A stretch of 64,000 bases of DNA. It comes from a virus. The translations under genes were made by a program, and so were the position numbers. The stretch covers positions 10,283-74,282 of IMG/VR virus record IMGVR_UViG_3300044655_000639. One strand, given 5' to 3'. This document shows, piece after piece, positions 1,599-47,173 of the stretch. Below the pieces are notes generated by a model. That model had not been told where the DNA came from. It searched no databases and worked only from the letters and a program-made list of their open reading frames with translations. The number at the start of each line of letters is the position of its first letter. The first letter of the stretch is position 1.

Positions 1599-3397
1599 GT
1601 ACAGCCTAAGCAGGTATCAGACATCATATCTATTTCCTTATGTTGTATTTGTTTACGTTCACCTGATGCAGTAGAAGCTGATACTCCTGCAGTAGAACGG
1701 ACGTAGTATAGTGACTTGATCTTCTTCCTCCAAGCAAGAATGTGAAGGTCTGAGATGAACTGTACAGATGATCCTGCTGGTATGAAGATGTTCAGTGACT
1801 GTCCCTGATCAATGAGAGCAGAACGATCTCCAGCAAACTCTAGCAGCCAACGCTGATCTAACTCAAAAGCAGTCTTGAATACATCCTTAATATTCTGTGG
1901 CATCCAATCTAGATGCTGTACAGAACCACTGTTCTTCTTAATGGAGTCCCACTGCTGAGATTCCCAAGCACTAGGATATCCTTCTCCTGCCTCATTAAAG
2001 AAGTCAGAGATATACTGTTCAAGATACTTATTCTTAATAGCAAAAGATCCCTGCTTAACCTTCTTAGTGAAAGCATTAGTGACCCAAGGCTCAATACCAG
2101 ATGAAGTAACACCACACAATGATGAGATACTCATGGTAGGAGCAATAGCAGTAACGTGAATGTTACGTTTCAATGTTCCATTACGATCAGACATAGGGCA
2201 CTTATGACCTCCTACATGTAAGCTAGCAATCTCATCATTATGATTATCAGCTGATTCCTTAATCATACTGAAGATCTTCATGTTAAGACCTTTAGCAATA
2301 GAGGATTCCCAAGGAATAAGCTTAGACTGTAGAAGTGAATGGAAGCCCATTACTCCAAGTCCGATACTTCTTTCGTCAATGGCTCCTGCTCTAGCTCGCT
2401 CGAATCCACTGAGATGCTCAGTACGGTTGATGAAGTCTTGAAGTACGTTGTCAAGATAATCAGAACAATCAGCAATGAACTGATCAAAACAATGTTGGTA
2501 CTCATCCCAATACTCAAGATTAATGCTACCAAGACAACAAACTCCACTATGGTTATCGTCAGTACGAAGCGTAATCTCAGTACAGAGGTTAGATGTTGTA
2601 ACTTTGATGTTTTCATTCTTATATTCCTCTGGTGCTAAGTCATTGACAGTATCAATGAATAGTAGATAAGGTTCTCCTGTAGTAATACGAGCCTCTAGGA
2701 TCTGAGACCATAGCTTACGAGCTGATACAGTACGAACTACTGCTCCAGTCTTTGGTGATAATAAATTCCAGTTGTAATCATTCAAGACACAATGCATGAA
2801 GTCATCAGAGATAACCACACCATGATGGAGATTAGGAGTTCTACGGCTACTGTCACCAGTCTCCTTACGGATATCAATGAACTCCTCAATCTCAGGATGT
2901 GAGATATCAAGGTATGTAGCTTCAGAAGCTCTACGAAGACCTCCCTGACTGATGGCAAGAGTACTACGGTCTGAGATACCTAAGAATGGTATGAGTCCAG
3001 AAGACTTTCCACCATGAGGTCCTACAGATTCATTGACTGAACGTACCTTAGACCAGTCAGTACCAATACCTCCACCATAAGCACCAAGGTTAAATGCTTC
3101 ATTATAGTTCTGGAAGATGGAGGGTTTATTGTCAGCAACACTCTTAGTGAAGCATGATATAGGAAGTCCTCTATCAGTACCAGCGTTAGATGAAATAGGC
3201 GTTGAACCATGCCACCAGTAATTTTTTAAATATATAGCCATACGATCAGCATGTTCTGTATCGTTGGCATAAGCATTGCTTACTCTATGTACCCATTGAT
3301 CATAATCTTCGTTGGGTAAAAAATAAGTTTCTTTATACAATGCTTTGGAAAAGTCAGGTAAGCCTGACCAACTTCTACTATGTAATAGCTGTAACAT
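1595..3397 (-). CDS. nrdA: Ribonucleotide reductase class Ia alpha subunit (no ATP-cone)
   Basis: STP..SNAG, PISCF, GGGIG, TSNLCTEI, CCLGSINL, APTMSIS, DQGQSLN, KSLYY motifs and C-terminal CxxC (CLGC). Confidence 0.96.
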   Translation of the reverse strand: MLQLLHSRSWSGLPDFSKALYKETYFLPNEDYDQWVHRVSNAYANDTEHADRMAIYLKNYWWHGSTPISSNAGTDRGLPISCFTKSVADNKPSIFQNYNEAFNLGAYGGGIGTDWSKVRSVNESVGPHGGKSSGLIPFLGISDRSTLAISQGGLRRASEATYLDISHPEIEEFIDIRKETGDSSRRTPNLHHGVVISDDFMHCVLNDYNWNLLSPKTGAVVRTVSARKLWSQILEARITTGEPYLLFIDTVNDLAPEEYKNENIKVTTSNLCTEITLRTDDNHSGVCCLGSINLEYWDEYQHCFDQFIADCSDYLDNVLQDFINRTEHLSGFERARAGAIDERSIGLGVMGFHSLLQSKLIPWESSIAKGLNMKIFSMIKESADNHNDEIASLHVGGHKCPMSDRNGTLKRNIHVTAIAPTMSISSLCGVTSSGIEPWVTNAFTKKVKQGSFAIKNKYLEQYISDFFNEAGEGYPSAWESQQWDSIKKNSGSVQHLDWMPQNIKDVFKTAFELDQRWLLEFAGDRSALIDQGQSLNIFIPAGSSVQFISDLHILAWRKKIKSLYYVRSTAGVSASTASGERKQIQHKEIDMMSDTCLGCT

Positions 3398-3863
3398 CTG
3401 TACACCTTTTTGAATGAATTTTTCTATGACAGTTGCTGCATACTAAGATACACTTATCTACTTCAGTCTTCCAACTTTCAAAAGGAGACATATCTATCTT
3501 CTTATGAATTCCAAACTCTTTAGTAGAAGGGTCTAGATGATGAAAGTCAAATGGTGCAAAGCACTCATCCTCATAGTTACAAATAGAGCAAGCTATCTTT
3601 CCACCTAAATGCTCTTTAATCTTTAGCACATTGGCTGAATAGTAGTTAGCTCTTCTATTCCTATTTGTCTCTCTCTCACGTTCTCTATACCCATCTTTTC
3701 CATTATTTCGTGTAGGAATAGTAGTATCTTTTTTACATTGCTTACACATAGGTCTAAATTTCTTTGATCCTGCTGTGTATCTACTGTATCTTATAAATGT
3801 GTCTAAGGCATCTGTATAACTATCTGACTCTTTACCACATCTATTACACTTTATATAGCACAT
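3378..3863 (-). CDS. HNH homing endonuclease
   Basis: CxxC zinc pairs and C-terminal CSIC...FDFHHLDP..K.F...E.DKCILVCSNCHRKIH; own TAGTATAAT -10 element at 3891-3899. Confidence 0.85.
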   Translation of the reverse strand: MCYIKCNRCGKESDSYTDALDTFIRYSRYTAGSKKFRPMCKQCKKDTTIPTRNNGKDGYRERERETNRNRRANYYSANVLKIKEHLGGKIACSICNYEDECFAPFDFHHLDPSTKEFGIHKKIDMSPFESWKTEVDKCILVCSNCHRKIHSKRCTDVTAIT

Positions 3864-18896: not shown

Positions 18897-18972
18897 TGGT
18901 GGGCAATTGGTGACTCGAACACCAATGACTCCTTTATGAGAGGAGGATATTAAACCTTTATATGAATCGCCC
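18897..18972 (-). tRNA. tRNA with CAT anticodon (Ile2 or elongator Met), CCA encoded
   Basis: Cloverleaf GGGCGAT-TC-ATAT/AAAGGTTTA/ATAT-C-CTCCT/CTCATAA/AGGAG-TCAT-TGGTG/TTCGAGT/CACCA-ATTGCCC-A-CCA; paired G1-C72 argues against an initiator tRNA. Confidence 0.9.
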
Positions 18973-19471: not shown

Positions 19472-19488
19472 AATATTCCTTGTTCAGT

Positions 19489-19563
19489 GAAGACTGGTAG
19501 GGCTTGAACCTACAACTCAGCGCACCTACGCCCTGTATTCAGACCAATTGAACTACAGTCTTC
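19489..19563 (-). tRNA. tRNA-like element with an aberrant anticodon arm (pseudo-tRNA)
   Basis: 8-bp GAAGACTG/CAGTCTTC acceptor, D-arm GTTC-AATTGGTCT-GAAT, T-arm GTAGG-TTCAAGC-CCTAC; anticodon arm has a G-G mismatch and a non-7-nt loop; no CCA. Confidence 0.7.
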
Positions 19564-20642: not shown

Positions 20643-21055
20643 TTACGCTCCCTTTTAGTTTCTAATACTTTGAACCATTTATTGGGTCGTCCGAAATAAG
20701 ACTCTGCTTCGAGTTCTGTCATGTATTTATTTGTAGGACAATAAAAGTCATCAGGAGTACGCAAATCAAGCCATAAGTATTCGTACACTGGCTCTGGTGG
20801 TTTGATACGATATTTTATAGCTGTCCCAAATGGGTAGTCTGTATACCACTTTCCTTCTAGCTCATATTGAAGTATTTTAGTCGTATCCTCAACCCATTCA
20901 TGGATTGCTTCAGAGTTTGAATGAGGATTAACCCCTCTTGGAATACATACATTTTGTGAGAAGAATTCATTGAATACTTCTGTAAGTATAGGTCTACGAT
21001 AATCCTCTGGATTAAATGTCCCAAATACTTTATCTTTCAATTTTTCTTTAGTCAT
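20639..21055 (-). CDS. Hypothetical protein
   Basis: Coupled ORF with a YRIKP motif. Confidence 0.65.
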   Translation of the reverse strand: MTKEKLKDKVFGTFNPEDYRRPILTEVFNEFFSQNVCIPRGVNPHSNSEAIHEWVEDTTKILQYELEGKWYTDYPFGTAIKYRIKPPEPVYEYLWLDLRTPDDFYCPTNKYMTELEAESYFGRPNKWFKVLETKRERK

Positions 21056-21387
21056 TATAATTCCTTTATAAAACTAGGTAGTTCACCTATTAACGGCTCA
21101 CAGTTGCTAGAGTTTAACCAATCTTCATCAATATGTTGTTGAGTTGCCTCTATAATGGTTGGAATTTTGTAGTCTAAAACTTGTGACCAAACCCATTCAC
21201 CAACTTTTGGTTTCCAAAGCTCACAGTGTTGTATATTAATATCATAGTTTCTAGTGTTGTCTATGGTGTCTCTAGTATACCAACCTTTTACACGAACAGT
21301 AGTAGTGCACCCTTTGTGTAGAGAGTCTATTTTTCCTATACCGAATACATTACTTCTAACCCAATCGCCTACTTTAAGTTCCATCAT
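21055..21387 (-). CDS. Hypothetical protein
   Basis: Coupled ORF; KVGDWV / WKPKVGEWVW internal motif. Confidence 0.65.
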   Translation of the reverse strand: MMELKVGDWVRSNVFGIGKIDSLHKGCTTTVRVKGWYTRDTIDNTRNYDINIQHCELWKPKVGEWVWSQVLDYKIPTIIEATQQHIDEDWLNSSNCEPLIGELPSFIKEL

Positions 21388-21967
21388 AAACTCCTATATA
21401 TTTTCATAACATCTTTAGCTTGTTTGTGCCCTAATTTACTATACCCTTTGTACCTCTTAATAGCTAAGAAATATGTACCATAGATATCAAGATAGTCTCT
21501 AAGAAGCTTAGCAGCATTCATGATATTACCTGAGTCATGGTAAGGATTGTATGGCAAGATAGAGCCACAAGTCATGTTGATACCACATAGACCTATTACG
21601 TTTGGTATGGCGTGTTTACGGTGCACAAATGAGCTTTCAGATGCTATCAGTGCACCTAGTACTTTGGGTCTAAATTATATGTCTCTGCTGCTTTGATGGT
21701 ATCTTTAGCTTGTTGTGGAGATGCTCCTAAAGTCTGAAGGGCTTCTGCTGTGGTTCTGTATGACTCAAGTTCTTTGTTGAGAGCATCTATCTCTCTGAAA
21801 GCCGCTGAGGCTTCTACTCTAGCTTGGTTGTCCATACTCAAGGACTGTTCTAAGACTCGTTCATGAGTGGATATGAGCATGCAGGATTGATTGCAGTATA
21901 CGAATGGTATTGCAATGATAGCAATAAGAATAGGAAGAATAATATCTTCATCAATGCTGATAGTCAT
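21384..21967 (-). CDS. Membrane-anchored lytic transglycosylase (SLT family) split by a -1 frameshift at about 21662
   Basis: Frame 0 (21967-21656) encodes a TM segment, coiled coil and AAETYNLDPK. The -1 frame continues VLGALIASESSF...IGLCGIN...NIMNAAKLL..Y...AIKRYKG, giving the SLT motifs I-III. Confidence 0.75.
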
Positions 21968-22224
21968 TGTGCCAACTTTGCTTCTGCTTGCTGTAGAGTA
22001 AGACCATCTTCCATCAATGACTGTACCATATAGCAATGTCCTATGATGATGTCAGAATCATCTTTCTCTTGCTGTAGCTGTTTGTTTTCCTCAAGCAATA
22101 GTCTGGCTTGAGCATTAGTAAGTACACTACTATACCACGCTATGATGGCCATAATGAAGAGACCTGATGACAACCATCTGTAGAAGGTACGAGAAGCTTT
22201 TAAGTGTTCATATGTTTCTCTCAT
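21964..22224 (-). CDS. Hypothetical membrane/coiled-coil protein
   Basis: One hydrophobic segment; coupled to neighbours. Confidence 0.6.
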   Translation of the reverse strand: MRETYEHLKASRTFYRWLSSGLFIMAIIAWYSSVLTNAQARLLLEENKQLQQEKDDSDIIIGHCYMVQSLMEDGLTLQQAEAKLAQ

Positions 22225-22947: not shown

Positions 22948-23181
22948 CTATGCAAAATCCTGTAGAAATTTAGGTGGAAATGCTAGCAAATATAATGACA
23001 TTAAAAACTGTGCAGTCATACCTACTATTAACATATCTCCACTACCATGAAAGAAATTCATGACTACTAATAACATACCTAAGTCTAGTATAAAATCTCC
23101 ATAGCGTTTATGTTCCCATTTCCATTTAAGAATGGCAAAGTCAAAGAAGACTATAAGTCCTATAACTATTAATTGTTCCAT
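22948..23181 (-). CDS. Small multi-TM membrane protein
   Basis: Three hydrophobic segments from MEQLIVIGL; start coupled to the upstream stop. Confidence 0.6.
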   Translation of the reverse strand: MEQLIVIGLIVFFDFAILKWKWEHKRYGDFILDLGMLLVVMNFFHGSGDMLIVGMTAQFLMSLYLLAFPPKFLQDFA

Positions 23182-23621
23182 TAGATCCTGTCTCTCCCAT
23201 GTCTGATAGCATGGCATGAATGACATACTGATACACACTGTTCTGTGGTAAATGTCATTGATTCTATACCATCATAATGTTCATGATGGACCTGTAGTGG
23301 AATGTCACAATCACTGCAATCTACACAGTGATATTTATCCCTCTTGAGTACCTGTTTACGAAGTGCTCTCCATTCTGGAGACTTCAAATATACTGCGTAT
23401 GCTGAGTAGTATTCAGGTGGAACCTTCTGTAGTGGTACATGTACATGATGATCTAAGTCAACTGTATATGGTGTGGTAGCACATGTACTTCTAACTGGAG
23501 ATTCTCCAAGTAATACTCTGATAAGCAGTAGAATTGGAATGAATAGTATTCCTGCTACTGTAGTGATAGCAAACCAGAAGAATGCTAATACTAATAGCAA
23601 TGCTTCCAGTAATACTGGCAT
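23181..23621 (-). CDS. HNH endonuclease with an N-terminal hydrophobic segment
   Basis: YLKSPEWRALRKQVLKRD...CVDC...LQVHH..Y...VCHSCH...H motif. Confidence 0.8.
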   Translation of the reverse strand: MPVLLEALLLVLAFFWFAITTVAGILFIPILLLIRVLLGESPVRSTCATTPYTVDLDHHVHVPLQKVPPEYYSAYAVYLKSPEWRALRKQVLKRDKYHCVDCSDCDIPLQVHHEHYDGIESMTFTTEQCVSVCHSCHAIRHGRDRI

Positions 23622-24507: not shown

Positions 24508-26346
24508 TTAGTCTTCATAAGACAACGGCATACCTGCCATAATGTCATCTCTACTAAGACTACCTTTAGTGATACGAAACTGTAGTGATGGATCAATCTG
24601 AGTAAGAATATCATGAAGTAAATTCATGTCATTAACATCAGCCATAACAGCCTTAACAAGACTGAATAACTTCTCTTCATTACCTTCTTCAATACCATAT
24701 GAATCATGAATCATACTGATAGCAAAGTCAGCTCTACGGCATACTTCTCTAGCTATGAACGACTCTACAGAACGTACAATATTAGGAGCTAAACTTCTGT
24801 TATACTTAGTATTATTAGGAACTTTAGCTTCAATAGATACACTATGAGTCTTACCCATTTGAAGATCAGCATAGTATCCTTTATGTGTAACAGTCTCCAT
24901 TACATCATATGATACAACAAAGCCATCAGGCATTGTCCACTGATAGTGTGATTGGTTCTCATTGTTGAATCTATAGATAAGATTCATAAGCTTAAGTGCT
25001 GCAGGAGCAAGCTCTTCTAATGCAGTCATAATGAACTTATATAGACCAGCTTTAAGCTCTTCTGGAACTAAGTCTCTGATAGTATGTGTACCAGCATAAC
25101 GTACATCATCCTTGATAGTATCAGTATTATCCAATAGCTGTTTCTCCATACCACCATAGAATGCAATCATTACTAAGTGTTTAACTGTATCCTTAACAAA
25201 GATACTACTACCAGTATGCTCATTAAGTCTTCTAGCTAATTCAATACGTAAGTCTTCCAACTCAGTATCTGAGAGTCCTACTCTACTACCTGTCAATGGA
25301 TCACTACCAAGTAATGCATATACTTGTAGATTATTATTTCTACAGTCATACTTCTTAATACTGTTGCCATTGATTGTAAGCATACGCTTCTGAAATGAAT
25401 CACCTTGTGGATTAAGGTATGGACTACATGAATGCATACGTCCTGAACTATTCTCAAATGCATATGGCACATGGAATGTCTCATCTTGAAATCTATGAAT
25501 ATCTTCTACTAACTTGTTCCACTCTTTAGCCATGAATACACCATCTTTATCAAACCATTTGTCTTGTAATTTATACTCTTCTAATAAAGGAACTAGTTCT
25601 TCATTAGGTATAAGCTTAAATGGTACTGACTGTTGGTGATTCAATGCAGATAATGCTGCTTCACCTTGTGCTGTAAGACCACTAAGCATAGTCTTACCTG
25701 ATAAATACGTTCCTCCTTTATTCTCTGCAGTATGTGCTACTAATCTATAAGCTGCTCCTCCACTACGTACTGTAGAAGCTTTAAGATAGAGTCCTTCTTC
25801 TTGTAAGAATGCTTGTAGTTTAATACTAGGCTCAATGATATTATGTGTATGAGCTTTGTCTGTCTTAATGATCTTATTTTGTAGAAAACCAGTATCTTTA
25901 AGGAACTGAATAATGTTAGCTCCAAGTGTAGCTTTAGTGCTGTGACTAGCACGTACTCTACCTGTACTTAATGTTATTACTTTGTTACAAAGCTGTTGAC
26001 CTAGCTTGTAACCTGCAATCCTGTGTTCGAGGTAACTATGGCTGATTACAAGATCCTCAATGAGGATTGTAAACACTTTAGCCCACTGAATATTGTGTTG
26101 AGACAACAGCTCATGATGGTACTCTTTATGTTCTATCTCACTGTTATTAATAGCTATTAAGTACTCACTCCAATTACTGCCTAATGTCTCTGCATTAAGC
26201 TTAGAAACACTGTCTTTAATTGCTAGTCTAAGACCAGCTAAGCTATAACTAGCTTCGTATGACTGCTGCTTAGCAGCAACTGCTTGGATTTGTGCAAATG
26301 TAAGTGTTGATAATGTTTTCATAATATTCTCCTCAGAATAATACAC
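24508..26346 (-). CDS. Single-subunit DNA-dependent RNA polymerase (T7/N4 RNAPII family)
   Basis: SGRMH...LNPQGD (DxxGR motif), motif A YDCRNNNLQ, motif B KDTVKHLVMIAFYG, W.MPDGF.V, APNIV and motif C IHDSY. The start may be 26321 (MKTL). Confidence 0.85.
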   Translation of the reverse strand: MYYSEENIMKTLSTLTFAQIQAVAAKQQSYEASYSLAGLRLAIKDSVSKLNAETLGSNWSEYLIAINNSEIEHKEYHHELLSQHNIQWAKVFTILIEDLVISHSYLEHRIAGYKLGQQLCNKVITLSTGRVRASHSTKATLGANIIQFLKDTGFLQNKIIKTDKAHTHNIIEPSIKLQAFLQEEGLYLKASTVRSGGAAYRLVAHTAENKGGTYLSGKTMLSGLTAQGEAALSALNHQQSVPFKLIPNEELVPLLEEYKLQDKWFDKDGVFMAKEWNKLVEDIHRFQDETFHVPYAFENSSGRMHSCSPYLNPQGDSFQKRMLTINGNSIKKYDCRNNNLQVYALLGSDPLTGSRVGLSDTELEDLRIELARRLNEHTGSSIFVKDTVKHLVMIAFYGGMEKQLLDNTDTIKDDVRYAGTHTIRDLVPEELKAGLYKFIMTALEELAPAALKLMNLIYRFNNENQSHYQWTMPDGFVVSYDVMETVTHKGYYADLQMGKTHSVSIEAKVPNNTKYNRSLAPNIVRSVESFIAREVCRRADFAISMIHDSYGIEEGNEEKLFSLVKAVMADVNDMNLLHDILTQIDPSLQFRITKGSLSRDDIMAGMPLSYED

Positions 26347-36488: not shown

Positions 36489-36941
36489 ATGATGCAAGGT
36501 TTTCATCCAAAGTTTACGTGGGAAGAGCTTATACGTACAAATCATAGTAGCTTACAAGCTCAAAATATCAAAGAGGCACTGAAGTATCAAAACGCTGGTA
36601 AGCGGTTATCAAAGCTGTTGGGAAGCATCAGAGAAGCGTATGGATTTCCTATCTCTATTACAAGTGGGTTTCGTTGTCCAGCTCTCAATAGGGCTGTTGG
36701 AAGTAAGGCTAAGACCTCATCACATATGAGGTTTGAAGCTGCTGATTGTATTCCCGTTGGTAAAGATTTCAAGCACTTCTTTAATTGGCTCAATGAACAT
36801 AGTATCGAGTTCCCTGATTTACGCAAAGCAATCATCGAACATCATAAGGGGTTGGTGCATATTGAGGTGAAGATGGATGCTGAGGAGCCTCAAGTATTTT
36901 ACACTACGAATGACAATGTGACGTTTAAGGCGGTGGCATGA
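36489..36941 (+). CDS. Endolysin, peptidase M15 family
   Basis: PI.ITSGFRC..LN.AVG....S.H....AAD...VHI motifs. Confidence 0.9.
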   Translation: MMQGFHPKFTWEELIRTNHSSLQAQNIKEALKYQNAGKRLSKLLGSIREAYGFPISITSGFRCPALNRAVGSKAKTSSHMRFEAADCIPVGKDFKHFFNWLNEHSIEFPDLRKAIIEHHKGLVHIEVKMDAEEPQVFYTTNDNVTFKAVA

Positions 36942-42159: not shown

Positions 42160-43062
42160 GTGCATAATATTGGAAAAAGAGGTAACATGATAGAAAAAAT
42201 AAAATCATTAGCTACTGATTCCAAGTACACTACTTGGTACTGTAGTATTATAAATAATGCTATGGCACGCACAGATGATATTGAAGGAGAGCGGCATCAC
42301 GTGGTTCCACGAAGCATCTGGCCTGATGGCATTTTGCTTAAGGAAAACATAGTAAAGCTTACATATAAGGAGCATTATGTTTGCCATAAACTACTAGCAA
42401 GAATGCTGATAGATCCTGCACATACACGTAAGATGCGCTTTGCTCTATGGAGGCTAACACATAAGCGTGTCAATGATCAGATGTGTAATTCTAGAGATTA
42501 TGAATCTGCCAAAGTGCTTCACAAGCAAGCACTTGAAGAGCTATGGGCGCAGGATGGGTTTAGAGAAGATATGCTAAAAAGTCGTAAATGGTTTTACGAA
42601 AGTGAGGATCAAAAATCTGCTAATAGCAGACGAGCTAAAGAACGACTACAAAACCCAGAGTTTCGTGAAAAGTTTTTTAAAGCTGCCAATGAAGCAAATA
42701 AAATAATCAGAGATTCTGATCCTATAAAATGGGCACAACAATCTATGAGATCTGCAGAAGGAAAAGCTAATGCTAAAAAAACACAGCAAACTGATAGCCA
42801 TCGCAAAGCTTGTAGCGAACGAGAATTAAATAAATCCCCCGAGCAAAGATTAGCGCTGGCCAAGCAAGGCCAACAAGCTCTAGTCGACAAGCTCGGTGGA
42901 GAAGAGGCGTATCGTGAGTACTTGAGCAATAGGATTAAAGGACGTCGCAAGTACATTAATCCTAGCGATGGGTCAATACGCATACTTCGTGAAGCCGTTG
43001 ATGGGTATGTGTTGATGGCTGACTATAAGCTAACTGTAAGGAACCATTATGTTTATATTTGA
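42160..43062 (+). CDS. HNH homing endonuclease (Mob-like)
   Basis: WY..II..A..R...ERHHVVPRS...N.VKLT.KEH...H.LL motif with a basic helical tail; the likely start is about 42188. Confidence 0.85.
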   Translation: MHNIGKRGNMIEKIKSLATDSKYTTWYCSIINNAMARTDDIEGERHHVVPRSIWPDGILLKENIVKLTYKEHYVCHKLLARMLIDPAHTRKMRFALWRLTHKRVNDQMCNSRDYESAKVLHKQALEELWAQDGFREDMLKSRKWFYESEDQKSANSRRAKERLQNPEFREKFFKAANEANKIIRDSDPIKWAQQSMRSAEGKANAKKTQQTDSHRKACSERELNKSPEQRLALAKQGQQALVDKLGGEEAYREYLSNRIKGRRKYINPSDGSIRILREAVDGYVLMADYKLTVRNHYVYI

Positions 43063-46327: not shown

Positions 46328-47173
46328 ATGAGCTATATAGTATATAAACACACCAATAATATTACAGGTAAGTCCTATGTAGGTCTGACTAAATACACAA
46401 TAGAGCATAGATGGTCTCAACATGTGTATGAAGCTATGAAAGGCAGACGTAACTATAAGTTCTATAATGCTATAACTAAGTATGGTACTGATGTATGGAC
46501 AAGTGATACGCTAGTGTATGATATAGAAACATTCGAGGAAGCTGCTATACATGAAAAGTACATGATAGCTTTATATGATTGTATAGATAATGGTTACAAT
46601 ATATCAGAAGGCGGTGAAGGTTGCACTATAAAGGCAGGTCCAAGTCACCCACTGTATGGTGTCAAGAAGAGTAAAGAACATGTTGATAAAAGTGTGAAAG
46701 GGACTAAAGAAGCTAAAGATAAATGGACAGAAGAAAGACGTATGCAGTATAGTGCTACATGTGTAGAAGTTCTCAGAAAGAGATGGGAGACTATAGAGTA
46801 CTCCTTCTACCATGAGGATTATGGTGTAGTAACAGGATTTGTATCTGATATAGCTAACAAGTACCAACTATACTCAGGGTATCTTAGATATGTAACAAAG
46901 GGCAAATCTAAACACTGCAATGGATGGTTTCTGTATACAGGTGATAACGGGGACTATACCAAAGATCCTATATACACTTTCACACATGAACTATATGGAA
47001 ATGAGACTTTAACCTTAAAAGATATGAGTATTAAGTATAATCTATCAAAAGGTAATCTATGCATGGTAGCCAAAGGACAGCGTAATCACACTGGAGGTTG
47101 GAGACTAGCAATGATGGATGCTAAGGCATTCGATGCTATGAACATGCCAAAAAAAGAAGGAGTAAAGAAATGA
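46328..47173 (+). CDS. GIY-YIG homing endonuclease with NUMOD-like repeats
   Basis: IVYK.TN.I.GKSYVG.T...RW..H...E...I......NGYN...GG motif, H.LYG.KKS.EH, and two K...HxxGW repeats. Confidence 0.88.
   Translation: MSYIVYKHTNNITGKSYVGLTKYTIEHRWSQHVYEAMKGRRNYKFYNAITKYGTDVWTSDTLVYDIETFEEAAIHEKYMIALYDCIDNGYNISEGGEGCTIKAGPSHPLYGVKKSKEHVDKSVKGTKEAKDKWTEERRMQYSATCVEVLRKRWETIEYSFYHEDYGVVTGFVSDIANKYQLYSGYLRYVTKGKSKHCNGWFLYTGDNGDYTKDPIYTFTHELYGNETLTLKDMSIKYNLSKGNLCMVAKGQRNHTGGWRLAMMDAKAFDAMNMPKKEGVKK

Follow-up and report, generated by a model that had tools for sequence, protein, structure and literature searches.

Organization of the locus

The window analysed here is a 64,000-nucleotide (nt) stretch of viral DNA (positions 10,283 to 74,282 of IMG/VR record IMGVR_UViG_3300044655_000639), and on its minus strand, between 21,967 and 21,384, it carries a gene for a predicted membrane-anchored lytic transglycosylase that is divided between two reading frames. 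The two parts are very probably joined by a -1 ribosomal frameshift that is genuine, maintained in evolution and of the classical bacterial kind, a reading that draws on the recoding signals at the junction and on their recurrence in diverged relatives.

The 0-frame open reading frame (ORF; 21656..21967) starts with an ATG at 21967 and encodes 103 amino acids (aa), ending ...AAETYNLDPKY ahead of a TAG stop (21656..21658). It is colinear with the N-terminal halves of uninterrupted relatives. Its parts are an acidic N-terminus, a predicted transmembrane (TM) helix, a long helix of coiled-coil-like character and the opening helix of an SLT domain. The predicted TM segment, IILPILIAIIAIPFVY (21896..21943; residues 9-24), is hydrophobic and lies inside the continuous helix of the AlphaFold2 (AF2) model of a homologue, P0003. 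At the junction the 0 frame reads GCA GCA GAG ACA TAT AAT TTA GAC CCA AAG TAC TAG, with the TAG one codon past a slippery heptamer, C_CCA_AAG (21662..21668), and with the G of the stop forming the first base of a hairpin stem. A TAA in the -1 frame (21675..21677) sets the upstream limit of the region where a shift must happen. From 21674 only is the -1 frame open, starting FRPKVLGALIASESSF / FRPKVLGALIASESSFVHRKHAIPNVIGLCGIN and ending at the TGA at 21386-21384, and the overlap of the 0 and -1 frames is just six codons, with the heptamer inside it.

After a slip, the -1-frame continuation (21384..21662) would be read from GTA (21662-21660) and encode 92 aa, VLGALIASESSF...KIYRSL, followed by TGA. 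This is the catalytic part of the predicted SLT/GH23 domain. The predicted catalytic Glu codon, GAA (21636..21638), belongs to an ES motif within IASESSF and can be reached in the -1 frame only. Of the start codons ATG, GTG and TTG, the first to appear in the -1 frame is the GTG at 21626, which opens an 80-aa ORF (21384..21626) that begins after the Glu codon. The initial annotation of this stretch had described an in-phase heptamer at the end of the upstream ORF (GAC CCA AAG TAC TAG), a GGTGCAC/GTGCACC stem-loop (21656-21620) 5 nt after it, products of 194 aa (fused) and 103 aa (unshifted), and a downstream GTG ORF without the Glu. All of its coordinates were confirmed, the lengths add up (102 + 92 = 194 aa), and the GTG at 21626 does lie past the GAA at 21638-21636.

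Recoding signals in the window

In E. coli, X_XXA_AAG sequences are the most shift-prone heptamers, of which the best three, V_VVA_AAG, shift at about 0.3% when unstimulated and far more when stimulated, and the A_AAG tetramer is itself shift-prone given a strong stimulator (PMC4066793). The heptamer of the window stands in X_XXY_YYZ phase with the 0 frame. As a bare motif it is not rare: irrespective of phase, CCCAAAG occurs once in the window against 3.1 copies expected, and 97 of 100 shuffles hold at least one copy, so that phase and position are what count. Among the 58 ORFs of the window (55 kb), the C_CCA_AAG at 21668-21662 is the sole in-phase V_VVA_AAG, and the four copies of AAAAAAG in the window are all out of phase.

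Downstream of a 5-nt spacer lies a predicted stimulatory stem-loop (21620..21656), in which a 7-bp stem, GGUGCAC (21656-21650)/GUGCACC (21626-21620), closes an inner stem. RNAfold assigns it -17.3 kcal/mol (z = -3.1), a stability that one of 200 shuffles matches. An Rfam scan of 21450-21800 returned just one match, a sub-threshold microRNA on the opposite strand.

Split and uninterrupted forms among relatives

A full HMMER scan yielded 53 relatives of the -1-frame product. Many of these are uninterrupted proteins of 175-207 aa in which TM helix, long helix and domain are continuous (e.g. P0003, ...AAELYNLDPKMLGALIASESSF...), and about ten further relatives of 85-95 aa start no more than four residues from the junction. 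In an alignment of 27 sequences the two pieces of the window align gap-free and end to end with uninterrupted relatives of 180-207 aa, and by this colinearity the fused product would be the normal protein of the family.

Five contigs besides the window (L002, L004, L009, L010 and L011), in four diverged lineages, are split at the homologous codon, and each requires a -1 shift. Their 0 frames read AAC CCA AAG CAT TAG in L002, GAC CCA AAG CAT TAG in L009 and L010, and GAC CCA AAG CAT TTG GGG CTC TAA in L011, all four with C_CCA_AAG, and GTG GGA AAG TAG in L004, with G_GGA_AAG. An in-phase V_VVA_AAG is thereby found in 6/6 split loci (window included) versus 0/3 uninterrupted loci whose junction DNA was read (GAC CCA TTA in L008, TAT AAG GTC in L003 and GAT CCA AAA, or T_CCA_AAA, in L006); the more distant L012-L014 are uninterrupted as well. 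In L009, L010 and L011 a -1-frame TGA stands immediately 5′ of the CCC, so that a shift is possible on the heptamer only. In none of the six split loci does the -1 frame offer a canonical start (ATG, GTG or TTG) before the codon of the catalytic Glu.

The structure downstream recurs without its sequence. Each of the other five split loci has its own hairpin 5-7 nt past the heptamer, with paired segments that are non-homologous between lineages, such as the stems of 9 bp in L009 and L010 and of 8 bp (ACUCGGAA/UUCCGAGU) in L004; in the uninterrupted L003, L006 and L008, structure at this 5-7-nt spacing is weak or absent. Five of the six split loci (L002, L004, L009, L010 and L011) also carry a Shine-Dalgarno (SD)-like motif, GAGG or GGAGG, some 10-13 nt ahead of the heptamer (-6.8 to -10.2 kcal/mol), a spacing like that in dnaX; the uninterrupted L003 has such an element too, and our reading does not depend on it. 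The split, the heptamer and the hairpin, whose conservation in relatives had been put forward as a check on the frameshift, were thus found together in all five further contigs.

Closer to the window the split appears to be the only form. Nine protein clusters (90% identity) that are 78-95% identical to the 0-frame product, drawn from JGI, ENA, NCBI and Logan and on contigs of up to 78.5 kb, without exception terminate at the split site (...LDPKY, ...LDPKS, ...LNPKY, ...LDAKY and ...LDVKY), and the protein database searched holds no uninterrupted form more than 69% identical to the -1-frame part of the window (P0001). Taken together, these two results indicate that the split is fixed in this clade. 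Relatives with an uninterrupted gene, which the initial annotation had listed as grounds for rejecting a frameshift, do exist in the literal sense among distant relatives (at most 70% identity); they do not refute it, since those whose DNA was read lack the heptamer and all nine of the 78-95% clusters end at the site.

Megablast and tblastn searches against 50,697 phage records gave no close relative among cultured phages. Single-protein scans led to no confirmed relative either, whether P0001, P0008, P0022 and P0061 were run on viral contigs or P0070 on genome contigs. Four contigs (L016-L019) retrieved with a degenerate DNA pattern for the junction were rejected as chance matches in an unrelated gene. 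Reassignment of TAG was likewise considered and rejected, as reading through it leads to a TGA two codons on in the window and to a TAA two codons on in L002.

A predicted SLT/GH23 domain across the junction

Taken alone, the two pieces of the window have no Pfam SLT match and a sole PHROG match, phrog_13449 'transglycosylase', at E = 0.004. The SLT identity given in the initial annotation is therefore not detectable on these pieces and holds by way of the family. PF01464 (SLT) is matched by 13 of the 27 aligned members (best 1.6e-7), the family profile matches the SLT domain of the solved tape-measure protein 9b45_a at 9.7e-8 with the ES motifs aligned, and across the 27 sequences the Glu column hardly varies.

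The predicted fold agrees. The AF2 model of P0003, a 65%-identical homologue and not the fused protein of the window, has a predicted local distance difference test (pLDDT) score of 95.8 and consists of one helix (residues 5-73) followed by a compact helical domain. Its top PDB matches are all GH23/SLT proteins, namely a GH23 chitinase, LtgA, Slt70, g-type lysozymes, MltC/E/F and T7 gp16, with a Foldseek probability of 1.0 at E-values of only 1e-3 to 0.1. It is also matched by 17 viral SLT models at E <= 1e-3, the foremost being full-length matches to SLT proteins of Campylobacter phages and to PRD1 P7. Judged from the family members and the homologue model, the predicted domain is a divergent SLT/GH23 fold, goose-lysozyme-like and all-alpha. 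The junction falls inside it, between the first helix and the helix bearing the catalytic Glu; with the Glu helix beyond the junction, the 103-aa product cannot be catalytic, just as had been proposed for the unshifted form.

Directly ahead of the TM helix, an acidic motif, I-[DE]-[DE]-D-[IL]-I-L-P, is kept in the window (21943-21967) and in relatives (N-termini MTISIDEDIILP, MTLNIEEDLILP and MSIDDDIILP). The N-terminus carries no positive charge, which would be unusual for a type II (N-in) anchor.

Selection on the trans-frame region

Identifying further split loci allowed us to interrogate how the -1-frame part has evolved. Between L009 and L010, the closest split pair, the synonymous rate (dS) is 0.36 and the nonsynonymous rate (dN) 0.01, giving a dN/dS of 0.04; other pairs have dN/dS of 0.14-0.41 with dS near saturation. 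The proportion of synonymous differences (pS) between split lineages is 0.6-0.85, also close to saturation, and with synonymous sites in this state, inertia does not explain why four lineages retain the three synonymous choices behind C_CCA_AAG. L009 and L010 differ at 72 of 577 nt, and their longest identical run, of 78 nt, extends from -19 to +58 around the heptamer (P = 0.0008, permutation); it takes in heptamer, spacer and hairpin as well as the SD-like GAGG. Going by this alignment, the island is the signature of an overlapping RNA-level constraint and makes a pseudogene very unlikely.

Proposed mechanism

In the mechanism that we propose, ribosomes translating the 0-frame ORF would reach C_CCA_AAG and be paused there by the stem-loop 5 nt downstream. 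A fraction of them would slip back one base, with tRNA-Pro moving from CCA to CCC and tRNA-Lys from AAG to AAA, and would then read the -1 frame to 21384. Ribosomes that do not shift would terminate one codon later; their 103-aa product, a membrane stalk made of TM helix, long helix and first SLT helix, would lack the catalytic Glu. Those that shift would produce a membrane-anchored lytic transglycosylase of the SLT/GH23 type, 194 aa long and colinear with its uninterrupted counterparts in related phages. From the sequence we infer that slippage takes place on this heptamer in the host and, likewise, its efficiency and the enzymatic activity of the product.

What the arrangement does for the phage allows for several answers. 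The ratio of short to long product might itself be the function; such dosing, named in the initial annotation, is plausible, but we hold the idea with reserve. Speculatively, a peptidoglycan-cutting enzyme encoded among middle genes would be held at a low dose or, equally speculatively, the dead short form would dilute the active one via their shared stalk. In its fullest version, which we put forward only tentatively, the frameshift would be a regulatory device and not a repair: it would set a low ratio of active anchored transglycosylase to dead stalk, the short form would dilute or restrain the active form in an antiholin-like logic achieved by recoding, and the lineage would toggle between fused and frameshift-dependent genes by gain or loss of a single base.

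Alternative explanations

The sequence itself appears sound. The window is part of a metagenome-assembled IMG/VR contig of 74,282 bp, and the stretch is present in 20 public runs. Contigs X4 (word depth 27) and X7 (word depth 75), from two independent lake samples, run unbroken through 21300-22100 with no inserted or deleted letter and two substitutions elsewhere, and contigs from two metatranscriptome libraries, X8 (21445-22100) and X12 (21348-21679), have no differences across the heptamer. As contigs were compared, it is the majority sequence that is established, with rare variants beyond contig resolution. A sequencing or assembly error, by which the true genome would have one more base and an uninterrupted gene, could be suspected from the metagenomic source and from the two short homopolymers at the site (CCC and AAA). 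We consider its probability negligible, given X4 and X7, the five other contigs from four other samples that are split at the same codon despite divergence at most synonymous sites, and the nine close protein clusters that stop at the same residue. With the purifying selection on the -1 ORF, the same assemblies and split contigs support the frameshift reading of the initial annotation and exclude its alternative of a single-base deletion or assembly error. A decaying pseudogene, in which the frameshift killed the enzyme and left the downstream ORF as a remnant, would fit the existence of uninterrupted relatives and of another endolysin candidate in the same phage (36489-36941), but is very unlikely: the -1 ORF is intact over 92-100 codons in 6/6 split loci, the catalytic Glu and other near-invariant residues are kept, and dN/dS between L009 and L010 is as low as 0.04. 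Hardly more credible is the production of two polypeptides, with termination at the TAG and re-initiation in the -1 frame at a non-canonical start to yield a split enzyme. The genes of the operon are tightly coupled by ATGA overlaps and rare starts (CTG, ATA and ATT) do occur between heptamer and Glu in some loci; however, the loci share no candidate start, there is none ahead of the Glu in L004 and L011, and a fragment from the catalytic helix on, deprived of the first SLT helix, is structurally implausible. A variant of this explanation, transcriptional slippage that adds a base, is countered by the RNA-library contigs, which have no extra base, and by runs of three C and three A that are too short for polymerase slippage.

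Several observations weigh against a maintained, programmed frameshift. On the tree of the C-terminal domain, split genes branch among whole ones, and well-supported branches force at least three state changes; the split is therefore not needed for the enzyme to work and may simply be tolerated. Four of the nine closest clusters (P0057, P0059, P0060 and P0061) have LDAKY or LDVKY, that is, the Pro of the heptamer replaced by Ala or Val with the Lys, the next codon and the stop kept, so the P-site half of the heptamer is not strictly conserved; these variants could keep just the A_AAG tetramer, if their Ala and Val codons end in A, and slippage there may depend on it alone. The hairpin z-scores of single loci are modest (-1.4 to -3.8), the SD-like element of the window is weak (-2.9 kcal/mol), and the RNA-library contigs neither prove transcription nor can exclude rare slipped transcripts. 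In a host that has a tRNA-Lys with the anticodon CUU, AAG would be less prone to slippage. The whole form L008 is 70-74% identical to L009 and L010 in its N-terminal half and nearest to the window in its C-terminal half (70% versus 62%), a mosaic that suggests recombination near the junction. As the split form equals the whole form minus one base, its state looks labile, and this lability leaves room for a compensatory 'savior indel', which we regard as possible but doubtful. Here, a 1-nt deletion in an ancestral ...CCA AAA G... would have made the shifty heptamer, low slippage would restore enough enzyme, and the 103-aa product would be useless. Such compensatory frameshifting is recognised in the literature (PMC5009743). 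It would account for the exact colinearity of the fused product with whole relatives one base longer, for the interleaving on the tree and for a break that lies inside the SLT domain, between first helix and catalytic helix, instead of at a domain boundary; moreover, the stop codon of the 0 frame largely follows from the way in which the -1 frame encodes Leu-Gly (TTA/CTA GGN). On the other side, the split persists across lineages with saturated synonymous sites, each lineage has acquired a separate hairpin, and variation is suppressed over the cassette, which together point to selection on frameshift efficiency and not to a recent lesion. These three points also fit long-term compensation, and a savior indel differs from the programmed frameshift that we favor only in whether the short product matters.

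Comparison with known recoding systems

The mechanism is a canonical bacterial -1 programmed ribosomal frameshift (PRF) and ordinary as such; the gene context is new. The arrangement resembles E. coli dnaX (A_AAA_AAG) in combining X_XXA_AAG and a shift-prone tRNA-Lys with a stem-loop a few nt downstream and two products that share an N-terminus, details that are established knowledge (see also PMC5009743). An SD-like element lies upstream in dnaX; of the six split loci, five carry GAGG or GGAGG at about 10-13 nt, and the element of the window is weak. The genes are unrelated, and in dnaX the shifted product is the shorter one (gamma), whereas here it is longer and carries the catalytic residue. 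Insertion sequence (IS) elements are also similar in layout: the orfA-orfB pairs of IS3/IS911 and IS1222 likewise have the heptamer or an A_AAG tetramer plus a downstream structure, and a catalytic domain in the trans-frame product only, although they encode the transposases of mobile elements and not a phage cell-wall enzyme. The CGA_AAG type of site would be a precedent for the LDAKY/LDVKY variants if these keep A_AAG.

Well-supported programmed frameshifts of tailed phages concentrate in tail-chaperone and capsid genes. With lambda G/GT and the PRF of tail genes in double-stranded DNA phages, the gene described here shares a -1 shift that extends a protein and an arrangement that is kept despite sequence divergence. 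The lambda G/GT heptamer is G_GGA_AAG, as in the relative L004. Gene family, genome module and function are different: G/GT concerns a tail chaperone, in contrast to a muralytic enzyme among middle genes with a clear downstream hairpin in every split locus. Also from lambda, the dual start of the holin and antiholin S105/S107 would be a functional analogy for the speculative dosing model, in that a translational choice gives two membrane proteins of mostly the same sequence and possibly opposed roles, though S105/S107 relies on alternative initiation and not on frameshifting.

On the protein side, the SLT protein of Campylobacter phage CP81 (G0LWL1) has the same predicted fold and matches over its full length, long N-terminal helix included (E = 3e-6), and the PRD1 P7 transglycosylase (P27380) has the same predicted fold with a root-mean-square deviation of 1.9 A over 117 columns; T7 gp16 and GH23 enzymes are among the PDB matches listed above. 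The genes of CP81 SLT, P7 and gp16 are uninterrupted as far as records show. P7 and gp16 are virion proteins used at entry, whereas the frameshifted gene sits between RNA polymerase and replication genes and has a predicted membrane anchor.

For SLT, endolysin and lysozyme genes, neither full-text searches nor the 2016 recoding review (PMC5009743) turned up a report of a frameshift; the contents of a lactococcal lysin paper (Shearman 1994), cited in the PRFect paper as a 'lysin with a frameshift', were not checked. The comparative support is of the kind usually required: two different heptamers, a hairpin particular to each lineage, a trans-frame part under selection and a cassette in which variation is suppressed. 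One practical outcome is a correction of annotation: in many freshwater phage contigs, gene callers give a 'hypothetical protein' of about 100 aa and another of 60-90 aa in place of one enzyme. Furthermore, the split and fused alleles that coexist among relatives amount to a natural experiment on the gain and loss of frameshift dependence, and the compact cassette (about 50 nt) lends itself to tests of frameshift efficiency outside the model genes of E. coli.

Genomic context

The frameshifted gene is part of a tightly coupled operon, with ATGA overlaps at both of its ends. Its ATG is overlapped by the TGA of an 86-aa ORF upstream (21964..22224, minus strand), which suggests that the two would be translationally coupled, and the TGA of the -1-frame product is overlapped by the ATG of a 110-aa ORF (21055..21387, minus strand) with AGGAG in front. 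The phage is a freshwater one, and its genome is N4-like: a 3,228-aa ORF of the size of a virion RNA polymerase lies upstream of the window (L015 106..9792), and a single-subunit RNA polymerase of 612 aa (phrog_414/2051) is encoded at 24508-26346. RNA polymerase, HNH nuclease, ThyX, helicase, DNA polymerase, primase and ribonucleotide reductase genes surround the frameshifted gene, one of the middle genes. The 150-aa endolysin candidate (36489-36941, plus strand; phrog_894, E = 7e-22) is separate and lies in the late region, so the frameshifted SLT protein is probably not the main lysis enzyme; nor does its gene have the location of a lysis-cassette member, which would lie with holin and spanin genes in the late or lysis module and encode the main muralytic enzyme.

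Hints as to the host come from two side observations. P0070, a 92-aa short form that starts at the junction, is on a 176-kb contig of an NCBI metagenome-assembled genome labelled Sulfuricurvum sp., and the best full-length structural matches (BFVD G0LWL1 and A0A410T7P4) are Campylobacter phage SLT proteins. Together they hint, weakly, at Campylobacterota hosts. ARAGORN found no tRNA-Lys in the window; at 18897-18972 and 19487-19563 (minus strand) it reported a gene for tRNA-Met and an unusual tRNA-like one whose 'anticodon' has just 2 nt. The 64-kb window also holds four homing or HNH/GIY-YIG endonuclease genes (3378-3863, 23181-23621, 42160-43062 and 46328-47173), of which the one at 23181-23621 has a long hydrophobic N-terminus.

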